Shown: one piece after another, positions 25,722 to 64,000 of the stretch | Layout of the letters: every line of letters starts with the position of its first letter | How positions within the stretch are numbered: position 1 is the first letter of the stretch | Assembly (NCBI GenBank): GCA_965220165.1 | Contig: CBDCPJ010000054.1 | Coordinates: 385,708-449,707 of the forward strand | From: Spirochaetia bacterium | Lineage (GTDB): Bacteria; Spirochaetota; Spirochaetia; G963692905 | Length of the DNA stretch: 64,000 nucleotides | Reading direction: 5' to 3' | The notes under the pieces: generated by a model | What the model was told of the DNA's origin: nothing | The model's database searches: none | The model's input: only the letters and a program-made list of their open reading frames with translations | Program-made: the position numbers and the translations under genes

Positions 25722-25945
25722 GGATGGTTTGGGCGTTGCGGGCTATTTGCTGGGCGTTTGGAAATGCAAGAATTGCCGCCCGCTGAGGGGGGTAGCGTAA
25801 TAGCGCGGAGCGCTATGGAGCGAGGGGGGAGACAGCGATGTTCTTACCGTTCTCCGGTAGATAATCCGCGCTCCAATGTGTTCGTATCGCGCATATGCGA
25901 GGCTTCGAGCATATGCGTTGGTCGCAATCGCCCTCCCCCCCCCCC
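25722..25945 (+). repeat. Intergenic dispersed repeat, copy A (G6/C-run-bounded structured element)
   Basis: GGTTTGGGCGTTGCGGGC ... GAGGGGGGTAGCGTAATAGCGCGGAGCGCTATGGAGCGAGGGGGGAGAC ... CCCTC11. Matches the copies at 38479-38740 (reverse orientation) and 49028-49198. Confidence 0.7.
25931..25945 (+). repeat. Homopolymeric tract CCCTC11 (poly-G on the minus strand) about 95 bp upstream of the response-regulator start
   Basis: Direct reading of the sequence. Confidence 0.9.
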
Positions 25946-26039
25946 ACAACTTTATATTCTATCAATGGTATTTCATTGACATATCGGTCTATAGTGTCTA
26001 CGTTTGTGTGTAGTATGCTAACAATAGCGGGGAGGCGCA

Positions 26040-35053: not shown

Positions 35054-38000
35054 TTATTCTAAAAGAGCTTCGTTGATTGGCTCTGAGATTGGCTCTGAAA
35101 GCCCAGAATTAGAAGGCTGAATTATTCTCGCCCTGCTAATAATAACCTCGTTGGAAGCCGGCGCTTCGGCATCAGACTCATCATCTGGCTCGTCGAGCTG
35201 TTCCGCGTTGTCGTCGACTACGGGGACGATCAGATTATCGGAAGCCCCCTCAATATCGGATAGAACGCCCAGTCCATCGGCAGGATCTCCGTAATCGACG
35301 ACGCCCAGCCAATCGACGACGCCCAGTCCATCGGCAGAATCTCCGTAATCGACGACGCCCAGTCCATCGGCGGAATCTCCGTAATCGACGACGCCCAGTC
35401 CATCGGCAGGATCCCCGTAATCGACGACGCCCAGTCCATCGGCGGAATCCCCGTAATCGACGACGCCCAGTCCATCGGCAGGCTCCCCGTAATCGACGAC
35501 GCCCAGTCCATCGGCGGAATCCCCGTAATCGACGACGCCCAGTCCATCGGCAGGATCTCCGTAATCGACGACGCCCAGTCCATCGGCGGAATCTCCGTAA
35601 TCGACGACGCCCAGTCCATCGGCAGCCCAGTCCAATCTCCGTAATCGACGAATAATCGACGACGCCCAGCCCATCGGCAGGAATCCCCGTAATCGACGAC
35701 GCCCAGTCCATCGGCAGGCCCGTAATCGACGACGCCCAGTCCATCGGCAGGAATCCCCGTAAATGGCGGGATCAGCGGCAAAATAGTTTGAGAGCCCAGT
35801 CCATCGGCTTTGCGTTTGCGCTTCCGCGTAAATGGCGATTTGCGCAAAATGCGTTTGCGCTTGCGCTTGCGTTTGCGCTTGCGTTTCGAGCGCCCCTTGC
35901 CGCTCGCCAGCGCCGACTATATCGTCCGATTCGCTAACTTCCTCGACCTCTTGGTCTCCGAGAAAAGACAACGCGGCAATATCTAGCTCCAATTCAACCG
36001 TCTGAAGATTGCTACTCAACCGCTTCACGAGGCCTTGCCGTCGCTCCTGTTCGAAACTATACAGCGTATCGTATTCGGTAGGCTCTGTATTCTCAATAAA
36101 TACCTCGGTTCTTACCCCCAACTCATAGCTCGGTGGCGGCAACAGGCCCGTGCGAGTCGCAATTTCATTGTAGACAATACCTTCGGCCGGCGGCACAAAC
36201 TCTCTGCGAGATAAATTCTTATGAATTTCACTCATATATTTTGCCCAGATAGGGCCTGCCGTTACGGCGCCCGTTTGATTTGTGCCCAACGAGTTGTTCC
36301 CTCCGCGATCAAATCCAATCCATACAGCCGTGGTGTAATAGGGAGAAAATCCCACAGTCCATGCGTCGCTCCAATTTTGGGTAGTGCCGGTTTTGCCAGC
36401 CACAGGAGAGGTAAACCCCCCGGCGATATTCTTAGCGTATCGCAACGTGCCAGAATTTACCGTCGACTGAAGAAGATCGGTCATAACATAGGCGGCTTGC
36501 GGACTAATAATCTGTCGCTCTTCAAGCGTCTGCTCTATCTCTTTTTGCCTCTGCTGTCGAAGATCGAGCACAATTTTGCCATTTTTATCCTCTATATAGA
36601 GAATGGCAAAGGGATCCACCAAAACGCCATTATTGGCAAATGTCGAGTATGCCTGCGCCATTTCGATGGGAGCCAATTCAACAATTCCAAGCCCCACCGG
36701 GTATCGACGCACCAAATTGCGGCTCAGCATATCCTCCGCGGGAATGCCAAGAAGACGGCGCGCTGTGGTAAGGGAATCGTCAAAACCCACCCGCTCGAGC
36801 ACTCGCAAACTGGGCACATTCATCGAATTGGCCAACGCTTGACGCGCCAAAACCGGACCGTGCCAGACGCCTTTGTAGTTCTCGGGCGTGTAGGCGGTGC
36901 CGTCTTCGTTCCAAAACACAACCGGCGCGTCGTAGATCATCGTCGCGGGAGTAATAACGCGCTTATCGATCGCGGCGGCATAGTAGAGCGGCTTAAAGGA
37001 CGAGCCCGGCTCCATCCTTCCGTCAATGGCTCGATTAAATTGGTTGCGCGATTCGAATTTGCTCCCGCCAATCATACTCAAGATATTGCCCGTCCCATTC
37101 TCCAATGTGACTAGCGCCCCCTCGACAATGGTTCGCTGCGCCTCGCGGCGATTGGCATCCAACGAGGCCTTGGTAATATCTCGAAGATCGCTCGATTCGC
37201 CGCGCGAGAACAGAAGAGAGATCATTTCCATCGCCGGCGCGATCTCCGTATTGTAATAGCGCTTGGCATCCCTGCGAATAGGAGCGTCCGCCGCGTAGAT
37301 ATCGGGGATATTAAACGCCAGCGCCAGCGCGTCGACCATGGCGATATATTCATCTCCCCCGCTCACTCTCCGATTATTATTTCGTTGGTAGATACGGTTG
37401 GCGTCTTTGAGCCCGTCGCTTATATGTCGCCGCGCCGCCTGTTGATATCCCAGATCGAGCGTTGTGCGCACCACAAACCCGCCGGTGTTGATATTATTAT
37501 TGCCCAATAGATAGCGATTCTCCAAAAGATATCGCACATATTCGCTAAAATAGGGAGCCAAATCATCGCGCTCGAAAAATGCGGTCGAGGTATTGGCTCG
37601 CGTGAAATCATAGCTCCCCCAATATTCGTTAAACGACTGATCCGCCTCCGCTCTTGACGTGTAGCCCAATTCAACCATTTGGTCGAGCACCGTCCGCTGA
37701 ATTTTGCGCGCGTTATTGGGATTGCGAATAGGGGAATAGATCGTGGGATTAGCCAGCTGGATAACCAGCATAACCGATTCGGCAAGGGTAAGATCGCGCG
37801 CGGAGTGGCCAAAAAAGAACTGAGACGCCGCCTCTATTCCATAGTTGCCGTGGCCAAAAAACATCGTATTGAGATACTTCTCCAGAATCTCGTATTTCGT
37901 CCAGTATCGCTCGACATGGTATGCCCACCAGAGCTCTTTTATCTTGCGCGAAATCGTAATTTCGCTACGATCGGCGTAGAGATGCCCCGCCAGTTGCTGT

Positions 38001-38449
38001 GTCAACGTGCTTCCGCCAGAAAAATAGCTATTGGTTATTTGATTCCAGATAGCGCGCGCCGTCCCGCGAACGCTAAATCCATTGTGTTGGAAAAATGTGC
38101 GATCCTCTCGAGTAATCAGCGCGTTGATCAGGTGGCGAGGGAGGCTGTCGATCGAAATAAGATCGCGCTTCTCTTCGGCGAAGAATTTGGTGATGAGCGC
38201 GCCGTGCCGATCGAGCACTTGGGTGGGAAGCGCCGCGGGCGTCGCCGCCAAAAGGTCGCTCTCGTCGATATTGTATACCGAGGCTATCCCAATGCCGGCG
38301 ACACCGCCGATGCAGATCATCGCAAGCGCGCAGAGAATCCAGAGCAACGCCCTCCATTTAGATGCTACACTTCGCATAGCGCAATGCTTATCATCATCGC
38401 CCGCCCTTGTCAATGCAAAAGATCGGCCATTGTTAGACCAAATCTCCAC
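35054..38449 (-). CDS. mrcA: Class A penicillin-binding protein (PBP1A: GT51 transglycosylase plus transpeptidase) with an approximately 300-aa repetitive C-terminal extension
   Basis: 1131 aa; N-terminal TM; GT51 motifs (EDRTFFQHNGF, GGSTLTQQL); transpeptidase SxxK-like and KTGT motifs. The tail contains (ADGLGVVDYGDS/P)n. Confidence 0.88.
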   Translation of the reverse strand: MEIWSNNGRSFALTRAGDDDKHCAMRSVASKWRALLWILCALAMICIGGVAGIGIASVYNIDESDLLAATPAALPTQVLDRHGALITKFFAEEKRDLISIDSLPRHLINALITREDRTFFQHNGFSVRGTARAIWNQITNSYFSGGSTLTQQLAGHLYADRSEITISRKIKELWWAYHVERYWTKYEILEKYLNTMFFGHGNYGIEAASQFFFGHSARDLTLAESVMLVIQLANPTIYSPIRNPNNARKIQRTVLDQMVELGYTSRAEADQSFNEYWGSYDFTRANTSTAFFERDDLAPYFSEYVRYLLENRYLLGNNNINTGGFVVRTTLDLGYQQAARRHISDGLKDANRIYQRNNNRRVSGGDEYIAMVDALALAFNIPDIYAADAPIRRDAKRYYNTEIAPAMEMISLLFSRGESSDLRDITKASLDANRREAQRTIVEGALVTLENGTGNILSMIGGSKFESRNQFNRAIDGRMEPGSSFKPLYYAAAIDKRVITPATMIYDAPVVFWNEDGTAYTPENYKGVWHGPVLARQALANSMNVPSLRVLERVGFDDSLTTARRLLGIPAEDMLSRNLVRRYPVGLGIVELAPIEMAQAYSTFANNGVLVDPFAILYIEDKNGKIVLDLRQQRQKEIEQTLEERQIISPQAAYVMTDLLQSTVNSGTLRYAKNIAGGFTSPVAGKTGTTQNWSDAWTVGFSPYYTTAVWIGFDRGGNNSLGTNQTGAVTAGPIWAKYMSEIHKNLSRREFVPPAEGIVYNEIATRTGLLPPPSYELGVRTEVFIENTEPTEYDTLYSFEQERRQGLVKRLSSNLQTVELELDIAALSFLGDQEVEEVSESDDIVGAGERQGALETQAQTQAQAQTHFAQIAIYAEAQTQSRWTGLSNYFAADPAIYGDSCRWTGRRRLRACRWTGRRRLRGFLPMGWASSIIRRLRRLDWAADGLGVVDYGDSADGLGVVDYGDPADGLGVVDYGDSADGLGVVDYGEPADGLGVVDYGDSADGLGVVDYGDPADGLGVVDYGDSADGLGVVDYGDSADGLGVVDWLGVVDYGDPADGLGVLSDIEGASDNLIVPVVDDNAEQLDEPDDESDAEAPASNEVIISRARIIQPSNSGLSEPISEPINEALLE
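35262..35770 (-). repeat. About 10 tandem copies of a 39-bp unit inside the PBP1A 3' region, encoding a 13-aa DGLGVVDYGDxA repeat; distal copies are degenerate and out of register
   Basis: Direct reading: the unit acgacgcccagtccatcggc(a/g)g(a/g)at(c/t)(c/t)ccgtaatcg recurs head-to-tail. Shadow ORFs 35230-35847 and 35250-35744 are the same repeat read in other frames. Confidence 0.9.
35806..35895 (-). repeat. GCGCTT/GCGTTT hexanucleotide microsatellite encoding a (TQAQ)n segment of the PBP1A tail
   Basis: gcgtttgcgcttgcgcttgcgtttgcgcttgcgtttc read directly. Confidence 0.85.
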
Positions 38450-45091: not shown

Positions 45092-45745
45092 TTAGGAGAT
45101 TGCTCGCAATAGCGAGCGAATAGCCTTTCCTCTATGAGATAGGCGATCTTTTTGCTCGTCCAAGATCGTAGCGGCATGCATTTTTATTTCGGGAAGATAG
45201 AATAGAGGATCATAGCCAAAACCCCTCTCGCCTTCCATCGTTTCGGCGATAGCGCCTTCCCATGTCTCCTGCGCGACAAAGAACCGCTCTTCGCTAAAAA
45301 TTAGCGCAACACAGCATACATACCAGGCGCGGCGATTCTCTATTCCTCGCATAGTCTCTAACAACAACCTCGAACGCCCCGCGTCGTCGAGCTTTTGATC
45401 GGGCGCCCCAAATCGAGCCGAGCGAACACCCGGTTTTCCGTCCAGCGCTTCGACGCATATTCCCGAGTCGTCGGCCATTGTAGGACGGCGCGTGATACGA
45501 AACAGCTCGAGGGCTTTGCCCATAGCATTTGCTAAAAACGTTTCGCCAACCTCCTCGTAGAAAAAATCGACGCCAACCTGCCGGGGCGTATGGAGCTCTA
45601 TGGACGCGTCAGACAGAATGCGCCTAAATTCGCGGGCTTTATGGGAATTATTGGTCGCAAGAACTATATCGCGCGGTCGCCGCTCGCCACGTCCCGAACC
45701 GGCGTTGTTCATATTGGACGCGCCTCCCGCCGCTTCATTATCCAA
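45092..45745 (-). CDS. rdgB: Non-canonical purine NTP pyrophosphatase (RdgB/HAM1)
   Basis: 217 aa; IVLATNNSHKAREF N-terminal motif and size. The true start is probably internal (the N-terminal 20 aa of the ORF is low-complexity). Confidence 0.8.
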   Translation of the reverse strand: MDNEAAGGASNMNNAGSGRGERRPRDIVLATNNSHKAREFRRILSDASIELHTPRQVGVDFFYEEVGETFLANAMGKALELFRITRRPTMADDSGICVEALDGKPGVRSARFGAPDQKLDDAGRSRLLLETMRGIENRRAWYVCCVALIFSEERFFVAQETWEGAIAETMEGERGFGYDPLFYLPEIKMHAATILDEQKDRLSHRGKAIRSLLRAIS

Positions 45746-47899: not shown

Positions 47900-48867
47900 A
47901 TATTGAGAGCCCCTTCGACAGCGAGGGGTTCAATTTCGGCAAGCTCCTCCGGACTAATTTCGAGCCGTTTGAGCGCGGCGATATTTTCCGCGAGCTGTTC
48001 CGCGCGGCTTGCGCCGATCAGCGAAGAGGTGACGCGTTTGTCTCGCAACGTCCACACGATGGCCAACTGCGCGAGAGTCTGCCCCCTTTTCCGCGCGATG
48101 GCGTCGAGGGCCGATACCCTTCGCATGTTTTCTTCCCGAAGAAATTTCTTGCTAAAGAATTCCGGCGCCGTCTTTGCCCTCGCGTCTTCGGGGATGCCGC
48201 CGAGGTAACGGTTGGTAAGCAATCCCTGCGCAAGCGGAGAAAAGACGATGCATCCCATGCCCGATCGCTCAAGCTCATCCAAAAGCCCCTTCTCGATCCA
48301 GCGATTGAAAAGAGAATAGGATGGTTGATGAATGAGGCAGGGCGCTCCCATCTCGCGCAACAGGCGGGCGGCTCGCGCCGTCTCTTCGGGGGGATAGGAA
48401 GAAATTCCAACATAAAGAGCCTTGCCCTGCTTGACCGCGCTGGCTAACGCGCCCATTGTCTCTTCGAGCGGCGTTTTGGGATCAAATCGATGCGAGTAAA
48501 AAATATCCACATAGTCTAGGCCCATACGGCGAAGGCTCTGATCGAGGCTTGAGAGAAGATACTTTCGCGATCCCCACTCTCCATAGGGGCCGGGCCACAT
48601 ATAATATCCCGCTTTTGTCGATATAATGAGCTCGTCGCGATAGGGACGAAGATCAGAGGCCATAACGCGCCCAAAATTCTCTTCCGCCGACCCGGGCGGG
48701 GGGCCGTAATTGTTGGCCAAATCAAAATGGCAAATGCCATGGTCGAATGCCAAAAAGAGCATTTCGCGAATCGCGCTCATCGACTGCAGACCGCCAAAAT
48801 TATTCCATAAGCCGAGCGATATTACCGGAAGTTGTATTCCGCTTTCGCCGCAACGGCGATAAACCAT
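47884..48867 (-). CDS. Aldo/keto reductase (YghZ/Kv-beta-like)
   Basis: Likely start MVYRRCGESGIQLPVISLGLW (ATG at 48867; the ORF track extends to 48921). AKR catalytic tetrad context present. Confidence 0.8.
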   Translation of the reverse strand: MVYRRCGESGIQLPVISLGLWNNFGGLQSMSAIREMLFLAFDHGICHFDLANNYGPPPGSAEENFGRVMASDLRPYRDELIISTKAGYYMWPGPYGEWGSRKYLLSSLDQSLRRMGLDYVDIFYSHRFDPKTPLEETMGALASAVKQGKALYVGISSYPPEETARAARLLREMGAPCLIHQPSYSLFNRWIEKGLLDELERSGMGCIVFSPLAQGLLTNRYLGGIPEDARAKTAPEFFSKKFLREENMRRVSALDAIARKRGQTLAQLAIVWTLRDKRVTSSLIGASRAEQLAENIAALKRLEISPEELAEIEPLAVEGALNIWSSE

Positions 48868-49027
48868 CTCAGAACTATAACGTTTTATATTTGGTAGATA
48901 AATCATACGGTATTGTATCATATTGGCGCGGTCGTCTCAATACAATTAGCGCGCGCTCTGCTCCGCGGCGAATGATATACGACCCAGTGACGGTATATCG
49001 CTCTATTGGCGGAGCGTTGCTTTGTAG

Positions 49028-49198
49028 AATGGGTTTGGGCGTTGCGGGCGTCGCGCTGATCGATCTACTATTGAGGGATGTCGCCCGCAGAGGGGGGAGC
49101 GCAATAGCGCAGGGGCGAGCCCAGCGGAGCGCGAGCGGAGCTGGATCAGCGCGCCCCGATCAGCGCTATGGAGCGCGGGGGGAGACTTCCCCCTTCTC
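49028..49198 (+). repeat. Intergenic dispersed repeat, copy C, in the divergent aldo/keto reductase / hisD promoter region
   Basis: GGGTTTGGGCGTTGCGGGC...GAGGGGGGAGCGCAATAGCGC...GGAGCGCGAGCGGAGC...GCGCTATGGAGCGCGGGGGGAGACTTCCCCC. Confidence 0.7.
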
Positions 49199-49358
49199 TT
49201 TTTATGGGCGAAATAAATAATTTTACAATTATAGTTTATGAGAAATGCGCCGACATTTATAATGGCTGTCCTGTCGGCGCAGTTCCCCTCCCAGTTTCTG
49301 CGTCGGCAACCAGCCTTTTTTTGTTTTTTGCGCGGCTCCATTTGCCGGCGCCGCGATT

Positions 49359-50729
49359 ATGGCAAATTATTGCGAAATATTCCGTTACTTGCTAGCATTA
49401 GCCGCTATGGCATTGGTAAACTATTGGCGGTGGGCGCGGCTTTCTGCCGAACAGCGGACGCGGCTTCTTCGCCGAGCGCAGGGCGATATCGATTCTATTA
49501 TGTCGGAGGTGGCCGAGATTGTCGCTTCGGTCAAAAATGGGGGCGACCACGCGCTCTGCCGATATATCGCGAAGTTCGACCATATCGAGCTTCGCGGCGG
49601 GGAGCTTCGAGTCGCCGAAGATGAGATAGAGAACGCTGAAACCCTGTTGCCGCAAAGCATTCGCAAGGCGATCGATTTTTCGGTGGAGAACGCGTTTCGT
49701 TTTCACCGTCCGCAAAAACGCGAGAGCGATGCCCAAATGGAAATACGACCAGGCGTATTCGCGCGAGAACGCGTCGATCCCATATCGTCTGTCGGGCTCT
49801 ATGTGCCGAGGGGTCGGGGGAGTTTTCCCTCTATGCTCTATATGATGGCGGTTCCCGCTCGAATAGCCGGGGCGCGTCGCGTCGTTGTAACCACCCCCGC
49901 GCTTCCCGATGGGAGCGTCGATCCCGCATGTCTCTACGCGGCGAAACTCTGCGGGGTCGCGGAGATATACCGGGCGGGCGGCGCGCACGCCATCGCCGCG
50001 CTGGCATATGGAACAGAATCTATCGAGGGTGTCGACGCCATTTTTGGGCCGGGGAGCGCCTGGGTGGCCGCGGCTAAACGCGTCGTGGCATCGGTTGTCA
50101 ATGTGGGGTTGCCGGCCGGCCCCTCCGAAGCGATTATACTCGCCGATCGATCGGCGAACGCGAGAAATGCCGCGCTCGATCTTGCCATTGAGGCGGAGCA
50201 TGGGGTAGATTCGTCGGCGTTGCTGATCACCGATTGCGAATCGATCGCGCTGGCGGTTCAAGGCTATGTCGACGAGGCGATAGAAGCGACACCATCCCCC
50301 CGCGGCGAGATACTTGCGCGGGTATTTGGCGAGGGCGGGTATGGCGGCATTATCCTCTGCGAGGATCAGCGGCAGGCGGTCGATCTTGTCAATCGCTTTG
50401 CCCCCGAGCATCTGCAGATTAGAACGGAGAATCCCGAAAAAACCGCGGAAGAGATTGTCAATAGCGGCGAAATTCTTCTGGGCGATTACGCCCCCTTTAG
50501 TCTGGCAAACTACGCCGTCGGAGCGAATGCGGTGTTGCCCACGGGGGGCGCCGCCAGAAGCTGGTCGGGGCTCTCTGTCCGCGATTTTCAGAAGTCGTCC
50601 GCAATTATTTCCATCAATAGAACGGGCTATCGTTCACTCCGCGATCATGTCATAGCGCTGGCCGATTACGAGGGATTTTTTCGCCACGCCGAAGCGCTGA
50701 GGCAGAGAGACGAAGACCATGGAGTTTAA
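49359..50729 (+). CDS. hisD: Histidinol dehydrogenase
   Basis: 456 aa (alternative ATG at 49410); characteristic GGDHALCRYIAKFD and SVGLYVPRG motifs; about 65% GC. Confidence 0.85.
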   Translation: MANYCEIFRYLLALAAMALVNYWRWARLSAEQRTRLLRRAQGDIDSIMSEVAEIVASVKNGGDHALCRYIAKFDHIELRGGELRVAEDEIENAETLLPQSIRKAIDFSVENAFRFHRPQKRESDAQMEIRPGVFARERVDPISSVGLYVPRGRGSFPSMLYMMAVPARIAGARRVVVTTPALPDGSVDPACLYAAKLCGVAEIYRAGGAHAIAALAYGTESIEGVDAIFGPGSAWVAAAKRVVASVVNVGLPAGPSEAIILADRSANARNAALDLAIEAEHGVDSSALLITDCESIALAVQGYVDEAIEATPSPRGEILARVFGEGGYGGIILCEDQRQAVDLVNRFAPEHLQIRTENPEKTAEEIVNSGEILLGDYAPFSLANYAVGANAVLPTGGAARSWSGLSVRDFQKSSAIISINRTGYRSLRDHVIALADYEGFFRHAEALRQRDEDHGV

Positions 50730-63929: not shown

Positions 63930-64000
63930 CGCCATGCATGGGGGGGGGAAATTGCTCAAAATCGGAGCGCCGATCAAATACGTCGAACGCCCATCACCCG

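Follow-up and report, generated by a model that had tools for sequence, protein, structure and literature searches.

Several families of small intergenic repeats have been described in Bacteria. The BOX elements of Streptococcus pneumoniae (boxA-boxB(n)-boxC) are small, non-coding and modular and are predicted to form stable stem-loops; they possess no transposase of their own and no classic terminal inverted repeats, and are often located near gene starts. In the Enterobacteriaceae, the ERIC/IRU sequences are repeats of about 70–250 nt in transcribed spacers, with size variants that go back to internal deletions and to insertions at fixed positions, and orientation-dependent effects on the flanking mRNAs have been reported for them. 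REP/BIME sequences, which are mobilised by RAYT proteins, consist of a short GC-rich hairpin in intergenic DNA. When they are co-transcribed, BOX, ERIC and REP/BIME all fold as multi-hairpin RNA. Furthermore, some copies of the Correia/NEMIS element of Neisseria carry terminator or promoter activity. This element belongs to the MITEs, which are short, intergenic and non-autonomous-looking and exist in internal-deletion variants (general review: PMC3184786).

The window analysed here, a stretch of 64,000 nucleotides from a Spirochaetia bacterium, contains three copies (A, B and C, Table 1) of a repeat that is comparable to these families in its build. Copy C, between an aldo/keto reductase (AKR) gene and hisD, is best explained as a member of a lineage-specific, non-coding, modular and structured intergenic repeat family in a deep-branching uncultivated spirochaete, a reading to which we give about an even chance. 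The repeat family is previously undescribed and of a familiar kind, the small structured intergenic repeat; to our knowledge nothing comparable is known from a deep uncultivated spirochaete lineage. The organism represents a Spirochaetia-like lineage which is deep-branching and uncultivated, and a comparison with 5.8 billion proteins gave no relative of its hisD and ArgRS above about 55–57 % identity. In content the window is an ordinary piece of spirochaete chromosome with genes for Pallilysin, Borrelia_P83, SmpB, DnaE, PriA and CdaA, and no transposase, RAYT or integrase was found among its open reading frames (ORFs).

Table 1 Coordinates of the three copies, of the parts of copy C and of the neighbouring features (positions in the window)
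Feature	Position	Strand	Sequence or remark
Copy A	25723-25945	+	between DUF4340 gene (stop 25667) and response-regulator gene (start 26040)
Copy B	38744-38480	−	begins on argS stop codon; ends 103 nt before PBP1A start 38377
Copy C, whole	49028-49205	+	between AKR and hisD
U block, left end of copy C	49028-49049	+	AATGGGTTTGGGCGTTGCGGGC; 18/18 identical to copy A
Hairpin 1, copy C	49043-49089	+	arms TGCGGGCG 49043-49050 and CGCCCGCA 49082-49089; 8/8 complementary
L block with G-run 1, copy C	49090-49110	+	GAGGGGGGAGCGCAATAGCGC; matches A and B
G-run string, copy C	49090-49101	+	GAGGGGGGAGCG; read from sequence
G-run string, copy C	49111-49119	+	AGGGGCGAG; read from sequence
G-run string, copy C	49174-49186	+	CGCGGGGGGAGAC; read from sequence
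Hairpin 2, copy C	49104-49169	+	arms ATAGCGC 49104-49110 and GCGCTAT 49163-49169
M block, conserved 14-nt loop	49126-49139	+	GGAGCGCGAGCGGA; 13/14 identical to B 38643-38630
R block with G-run 2, copy C	49163-49186	+	GCGCTATGGAGCGCGGGGGGAGAC; 3 exact matches in the window
Hairpin 3, compact form, copy C	49177-49205	+	GGGGGGA gac TTCCCCC, 7 bp, then TTCTCTTTTTAT
C-run TTCCCCC, copy C	49187-49193	+	read from sequence
R-block ORF (MERGGR...), copy C	49168-49395	+	no Pfam match
R-block ORF (MERGGR...), copy A	25815-25979	+	no Pfam match
R-block ORF (MERGGR...), copy B	38583-38410	−	no Pfam match
AKR promoter-like site	48940-48912	−	TTGAGA-17-TACAAT, TG-extended; automatic scan
Candidate hisD promoter	49235-49263	+	TTTATG-17-TATAAT; putative, read from sequence
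hisD-leader hairpin and U7GU6	49264-49329	+	−26.4 kcal/mol, z −2.8

The window contains the 24-nt R block GCGCTATGGAGCGNGGGGGGAGAC exactly three times, at 25810 (+), 38588 (−) and 49163 (+), with 0.00 occurrences expected from shuffled sequences, and a pattern search finds the L block, GAGGGGGG(T)AGCGYAATAGCGC, at these loci as well. No fourth copy was found in the window by a low-stringency blastn-short search with the three copies. Pairwise blastn, gapless anchored alignments and inverted-repeat scans reveal an ordered plan which is common to all copies and runs on one strand: U block, hairpin 1, G-run 1, hairpin 2, GGAGCG, G-run 2 and C-run. The U block at the left end has the consensus (A/G)ATGG(G)YTT, with a degenerate version (AATGGGCTTATCGGGCGA) in copy B, and the left end is 62–63 nt away from G-run 1 in all three copies. 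Hairpin 1 has the core CGGGCG/CGCCCG throughout and a loop of about 31–35 nt whose sequences are unrelated between the copies (31 nt of unconserved sequence in copy C). G-run 1 (GAGGGGGG) lies inside the L block, which in copy C carries a 1-nt deletion compared to A (25785-25806) and B (38681-38660). The seven base pairs of hairpin 2 (ATAGCGC/GCGCTAT) are identical in all copies and enclose an insert of 3 nt (GGA) in A, which therefore has the short form of this hairpin, of 71 nt in B and of 52 nt in C, the last with stems of its own (GGGGCG/CGCCCC and CCAGC/GCTGG). An internal block, the M block with GGAGCGCGAGYGGA, is presented as a hairpin loop in B and C and is missing in A; it is 87 % identical to R at 49170-49184 and is a diverged duplicate of R.

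The R block itself comprises GGAGCG-N followed by G-run 2 (GGGGGGAGAC). A C-run complementary to G-run 2 is located downstream, CTCCCCCC in A and B and TTCCCCC in C, and the pairing between both runs spans 101 nt in A, 72 nt in B and 3 nt in C. All three copies have a YTCCCCC motif no more than 120 nt away from the R block, for which the probability by chance is about 5e-6; the C-run therefore belongs to the element, and A and B are longer than the interval first assigned to them. In copy A the run is a C11 tract (25935-25945), 95 nt upstream of the response-regulator gene, compared to C6 in B and C5 in C, and this tract is a candidate for slipped-strand variation.

The blocks are 95–100 % identical across the copies, and the loops are unrelated. 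According to a table of the stem pairs, compensatory double changes have occurred at three pairs, and only copy A has a broken core pair, a single one. In hairpin 1 the outer pair, G-C in A and C, is replaced by T-A in B, and the stem closing the GGAGCGCGAGYGGA loop shows two compensatory pairs between B and C (G-C vs C-G; G-C vs A-T). Both G-runs are on the same strand, thus the element is no palindrome. The fold of the forward strand is more stable than that of the reverse complement in each copy, by 9–17 kcal/mol (−93.6 vs −84.8, −122.5 vs −105.9 and −81.7 vs −69.0 kcal/mol); the z-scores of the whole-element folds against shuffles are weak (−0.6, −0.1 and −2.0). Judged from the alignments, identical blocks beside saturated loops together with compensatory stem changes show a constraint that would act on a folded single strand, and either a host function or a propagating machinery could be its source.

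An earlier note on this DNA had placed copy C at 49028-49198 in a divergent spacer, with AKR on the minus and hisD on the plus strand. The spacer and the location were confirmed; the right end has to be shifted to 49205, as a T-rich tail extends past 49198. Reading of the sequence from 48700 to 49600 also recovered at their positions all strings quoted for this copy, and the upstream module said to be common to A and C, GGTTTGGGCGTTGCGGGC, is indeed identical in 18 of 18 positions (49032-49049 vs 25726-25743; 0.06 matches expected from shuffles). The distances given to the flanking genes, 160–330 bp for hisD and about 110 bp for AKR, hold for the longest ORFs (ATG 49359 for hisD, ATG 48921 for AKR) but not for the likelier starts. 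These are 48867 for AKR, according to the gene call in a second assembly, and 49408 for hisD, since its homologues have about 435 aa vs 456 aa here; with them the element is 161 bp away from AKR and 210–380 bp from hisD.

In appearance, copy C is a deletion variant: the C-run directly follows GGGGGGAGAC, leaving a stem of 7 bp and a loop of 3 nt. It is the only copy that combines the GC-rich stem, short loop and 3′ U-tract of an intrinsic terminator (GGGGGGA-gac-TTCCCCC, then TTCTCTTTTT); in A and B the stem is present, but the loop is long and no U-tract is adjacent. A terminator scan likewise classifies hairpin 3 of copy C as intrinsic-terminator-like, on the plus strand and directed toward hisD. 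Within this copy, positions 49053-49062 (GCGCTGATCG, in the loop of hairpin 1) are fully complementary over 10 nt to 49157-49166 (CGATCAGCGC, before and overlapping the R block), which may represent an alternative long-range pairing specific to copy C. In addition, GATCAGCGC is duplicated 14 nt apart, at 49144 and 49158.

Among the described systems, BOX of the pneumococci and ERIC of the enterobacteria are the closest analogues in build, a likeness in build and probable behaviour and not in sequence or ancestry. As in BOX, modules vary in number between conserved end modules: copy A is without an M block, and B and C contain one each. BOX is a family of Firmicutes and the present element one of Spirochaetota, and their likeness is architectural only, not a matter of direct comparison with boxA, boxB or boxC. 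Different from BOX are furthermore the three separate hairpins with free loops and the two same-strand G-runs clamping onto a C-run. ERIC is one long imperfect palindrome, whereas the element is not palindromic from end to end and has no sequence similarity to it. As in REP, a GTAG directly precedes the hairpin-2 region, namely in A (25791-25794) and B (GGGGGGTAGCG...); copy C has no such GTAG/GTGG head and reads GGAGCG because of the 1-nt deletion. The inverted pairs of REPIN/BIME were not found, as the G-run blocks are direct repeats and R, when reverse-complemented, agrees with L over ATAGCGC alone. In contrast to REP/BIME the unit measures 170–265 nt with three hairpins, and there is no RAYT gene in the window.

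With the MITEs, including Correia/NEMIS, the element shares shortness, intergenic position, a non-autonomous appearance and internal-deletion variants. A scan of the three copies and their flanks for terminal inverted repeats detected only the arms of the internal hairpins, with the U-block end unpaired with the C-run end, and flanking direct repeats of at least 8 nt are absent at all three copies; three copies do not fix the exact ends, so that repeats of 2–4 bp are not judgeable. On these grounds a MITE was rejected. Riboswitches and 5′-leader RNAs resemble the element in conserved junctions, covarying stems, variable loops, orientation to the downstream gene and a possible terminator hairpin. 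However, the copies match no Rfam family, their downstream genes are unrelated, and the stems are conserved in sequence and not only in pairing.

On a greedy ORF map about 92 % of the window is coding, its three largest intergenic gaps are those that contain the copies, and no copy lies within a gene. From a consistent placement in 5′ regulatory space it had been argued that the family is regulatory rather than a selfish insertion. All copies are indeed upstream of and co-oriented with a gene, that of the response regulator (26040), that of PBP1A (38377) and hisD, respectively; A and B, however, occupy as much 3′ as 5′ space because they are situated between co-directional genes. In bacterial genomes generally, about 85 % of the spacers would be expected to precede some gene. 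Given that A and B are in co-directional spacers and C in a divergent one, the co-orientation has a chance of about 0.25, and with n = 3 the conclusion drawn from placement is unsupported. The three downstream genes are functionally unrelated and share no common pathway. A regulatory role is possible, as the conserved blocks with free loops point to some constraint, and would need more than three copies for its support; likewise, regulation of hisD or AKR by copy C is possible and not supported by three copies. Against a selfish repeat speak the co-orientation with the downstream genes and the conserved internal blocks, neither of which is required of a purely selfish element.

Both genes next to copy C have a promoter candidate of their own. 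The AKR promoter-like site fits the AKR start at 48867 and is situated beyond the left end of the element, at a distance of 88 nt. The candidate hisD promoter is located in an AT-rich stretch just downstream of the element and was missed by the automatic scan because its −35 hexamer has only three of six matches; a single-nucleotide polymorphism (SNP) at 49245 (A/C between the assemblies) falls in its spacer. On these predictions the element would be upstream of both promoters and inside neither mRNA. A promoter transcribing copy C was not found. Between the candidate hisD promoter and the hisD start a further, strong hairpin is present, separate from the repeat, which consists of an 11-bp inner stem, a 5-bp outer stem and a C-rich 15-nt loop, UUCCCCUCCCAGUUU, and looks like a leader terminator or attenuator. 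Neither a leader peptide with His codon runs nor, in Rfam, a T-box or riboswitch match was detected in this leader, and a histidine leader peptide or T-box before hisD was thus rejected. For the annotation of the locus this means that the length of the region before hisD is accounted for by an inserted repeat together with a leader terminator of its own and not by a known histidine control element.

The structured-repeat explanation would account for these features as follows. The unit is strand-asymmetric, with three successive hairpins and purine-rich linkers carrying two GAGGGGGG runs, and stems and linkers are kept while the hairpin loops take any sequence or length. The family would have been spread or homogenised by a mechanism encoded outside the window, and a copy co-transcribed with its neighbour would give a stable multi-hairpin RNA on the gene-sense strand. 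In copy C, the clamp (7-bp G/C stem, U-rich tail) could serve for intrinsic termination in one direction only, at a site just before the probable hisD promoter, so that an effect on hisD or AKR would most likely be incidental insulation rather than a dedicated control circuit. Mobility of the family is unproven, with neither terminal inverted repeats nor target-site duplications of at least 8 nt at the copies nor a transposase, RAYT or integrase in the window. If the family is abundant in the genome, it would add a structurally distinct class to the few well-described bacterial intergenic repeats, distinguished by three hairpins, same-strand G-runs clamped by a C-run and ends that are not inverted. 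Conserved blocks beside saturated loops would reflect either a host function or an unrecognised mobilisation mechanism, and either answer would be informative.

A portable cis-regulatory leader, co-transcribed with the downstream gene and with two G-runs alternating on one C-run, perhaps with an upstream ORF that begins at the R-block ATG (MERGGR) and translates the C-run into Pro-Pro, is an unlikely alternative. It would explain why all copies are co-oriented with the downstream gene, their C-runs ending 95, 103 and 215 nt before the start codon, and it is in line with alternative complementarities such as 25816-25825 with 25866-25875 and 49053-49062 with 49157-49166. From the ATG of the R block an ORF runs over 54, 57 and 75 codons (p = 0.22, 0.11 and 0.08 in block shuffles, product 0.0018); it stops 60, 32 and 12 nt before the downstream start and in copy C passes through the hisD-leader terminator. 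The distance from G-run 2 to the C-run is a multiple of three in every copy (111, 84 and 12 nt). The C-run invariably falls in the CCC-CCC frame of this ORF and is read as PPPPP in A and as PP in B and C. The frame, however, was picked after the translations had been seen, so that the p-value needs an at least 3-fold correction. Moreover, the peptides are unrelated after residue 6 and match no Pfam family, only copies A and B have a Shine-Dalgarno-like motif ahead of the ATG, which itself is buried in hairpin 2; the ORF is probably not a gene. A common pathway of response regulator, PBP1A and hisD is missing, upstream of copy C no promoter was found and the best hisD candidate is downstream of the element, and the hisD of a relative has no such leader. 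The specific form in which translation of the MERGGR ORF melts the G-run/C-run clamp, reads a Pro-Pro(-Pro) stalling motif and ends 12–60 nt before the downstream start is most unlikely. If true, downstream expression would hinge on how the ribosome advances, and so for instance on EF-P or the supply of proline, and perhaps also on C-run slippage (C11 in copy A).

That the copies are independently transcribed paralogous sRNAs, whose G-rich linkers or GGAGCGCGAGYGGA loop act in trans on C-rich targets or titrate a protein, is improbable too, and considerably so. Copy C does end in the compact hairpin and U-rich tail with which sRNAs typically terminate, covarying stems beside conserved single-stranded blocks are the pattern of a structured RNA, and −10-like hexamers occur at the left end of C (TAGAAT, 49025-49030) and B (TGTAAT). 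Yet a complete promoter is predicted at none of the three copies, A has not even a −10-like hexamer, A and B are devoid of a U-tract after hairpin 3, and read-through from argS would transcribe B anyway, since this copy starts at the argS stop codon. No Rfam family matches, and by a rough hand estimate the GGA motifs are not enriched over composition; the same estimate, and the 77 occurrences of GGAGCG in the window, led to the rejection of a CsrA sponge. The element could also act as DNA, either through protein-binding blocks (an upstream activating sequence or a nucleoid-protein site) or with the U block as a −24/−12 sigma-54 promoter. Such a reading, to which we attach very little weight, would fit blocks conserved to the base, including stems that are free to covary in RNA, the position of copy C just upstream of both divergent promoter candidates, and the motifs TGG-N8-TTGC in the U block of copy A (25725-25739) and GGG-N8-TTGC in copy C (49031-49045). 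The sigma-54 variant was rejected, as the U block of copy B has no −12 TTGC and TGG-N8-TTGC is common in the window (15 matches, 7.3 expected, mostly inside genes). Spacings of 37, 105 and 85 nt between the G-run blocks are unlike a fixed multimeric site, both G-runs are on the same strand, and the compensatory changes favour pairing over recognition of the duplex. Remnants of a local duplication or gene conversion in a region of about 24 kb, with no family elsewhere and no function, have as small a chance as the sRNAs. All copies lie within 25.7–49.2 kb of the window, and apart from a chance match the exact R block is present nowhere else in the GTDB representatives, the JGI metagenomes and IMG/VR, collections which may or may not include the source genome. 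The flanks of the copies are dissimilar, and saturated loops beside near-identical blocks are unlike neutral decay.

Several further assignments were rejected. A riboswitch, a ribozyme or a known sRNA finds no counterpart in Rfam, where only two tRNAs of the window pass and the regions of B and C reach, at E-values up to 10, 11–23 bits vs thresholds of 45–100. Protein-coding sequence was discarded as no ORF across the copies has a Pfam match, and a canonical intramolecular G-quadruplex as each copy has only two G6 runs, with spacers of 31–99 nt. The triplet spacing is too irregular for a TRAP- or HutP-type NAG-repeat site. For an integron attC site, the R″/R′ core sites (RYYYAAC ... GTTRRRY), an array and an integrase are missing in the window; the arms here are ATAGCGC/GCGCTAT.

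In 185,579 GTDB species-representative genomes the exact R block has one match, which is inside a peroxiredoxin gene and due to chance. If the source genome is among them, the family is confined to the window and not dispersed. The JGI metagenomes yielded no exact match of the R block and four of the L block, none of the four with the partner block, and no copy was found in IMG/VR by an exact block scan or in PLSDB by blastn. A 978-aa composite of all six-frame translations, searched for mis-called ORFs over other copies, gave nothing relevant. In the only relative found with hisD-Mur ligase synteny, the 200 bp upstream of hisD contain no element, and an argS relative shows no synteny and is uninformative. 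The organism is also represented by a second assembly (ENA ERZ25072490), which is 99.94 % identical; its contig ctg193789 (54.8 kb) falls inside the window. There, the conserved blocks of B and C are unchanged, and one SNP is found, in the loop of hairpin 3 of copy B.

Over 20.5 kb the two assemblies differ by six SNPs and one 6-nt indel, the latter at 45700 near the start of a DUF1015 gene. A 36-nt tandem repeat of about 14 units (35239-35756, −) is located in the C-terminal part of the PBP1A gene (35054-38377), whose product has 1107 aa here vs 1083 aa in the second assembly; the two strains thus appear to be two repeat units apart. Upstream of the same gene, 38 nt from its start, TGGCCGATCTTTTGC (38429-38415, −) is a good TGGC-N7-TTGC match to a sigma-54 −24/−12 element, which may mean nothing as the pattern is over-represented in the window. 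A G9 homopolymer (63940-63948) just follows the stop of a CbiQ-like gene near the end of the window.
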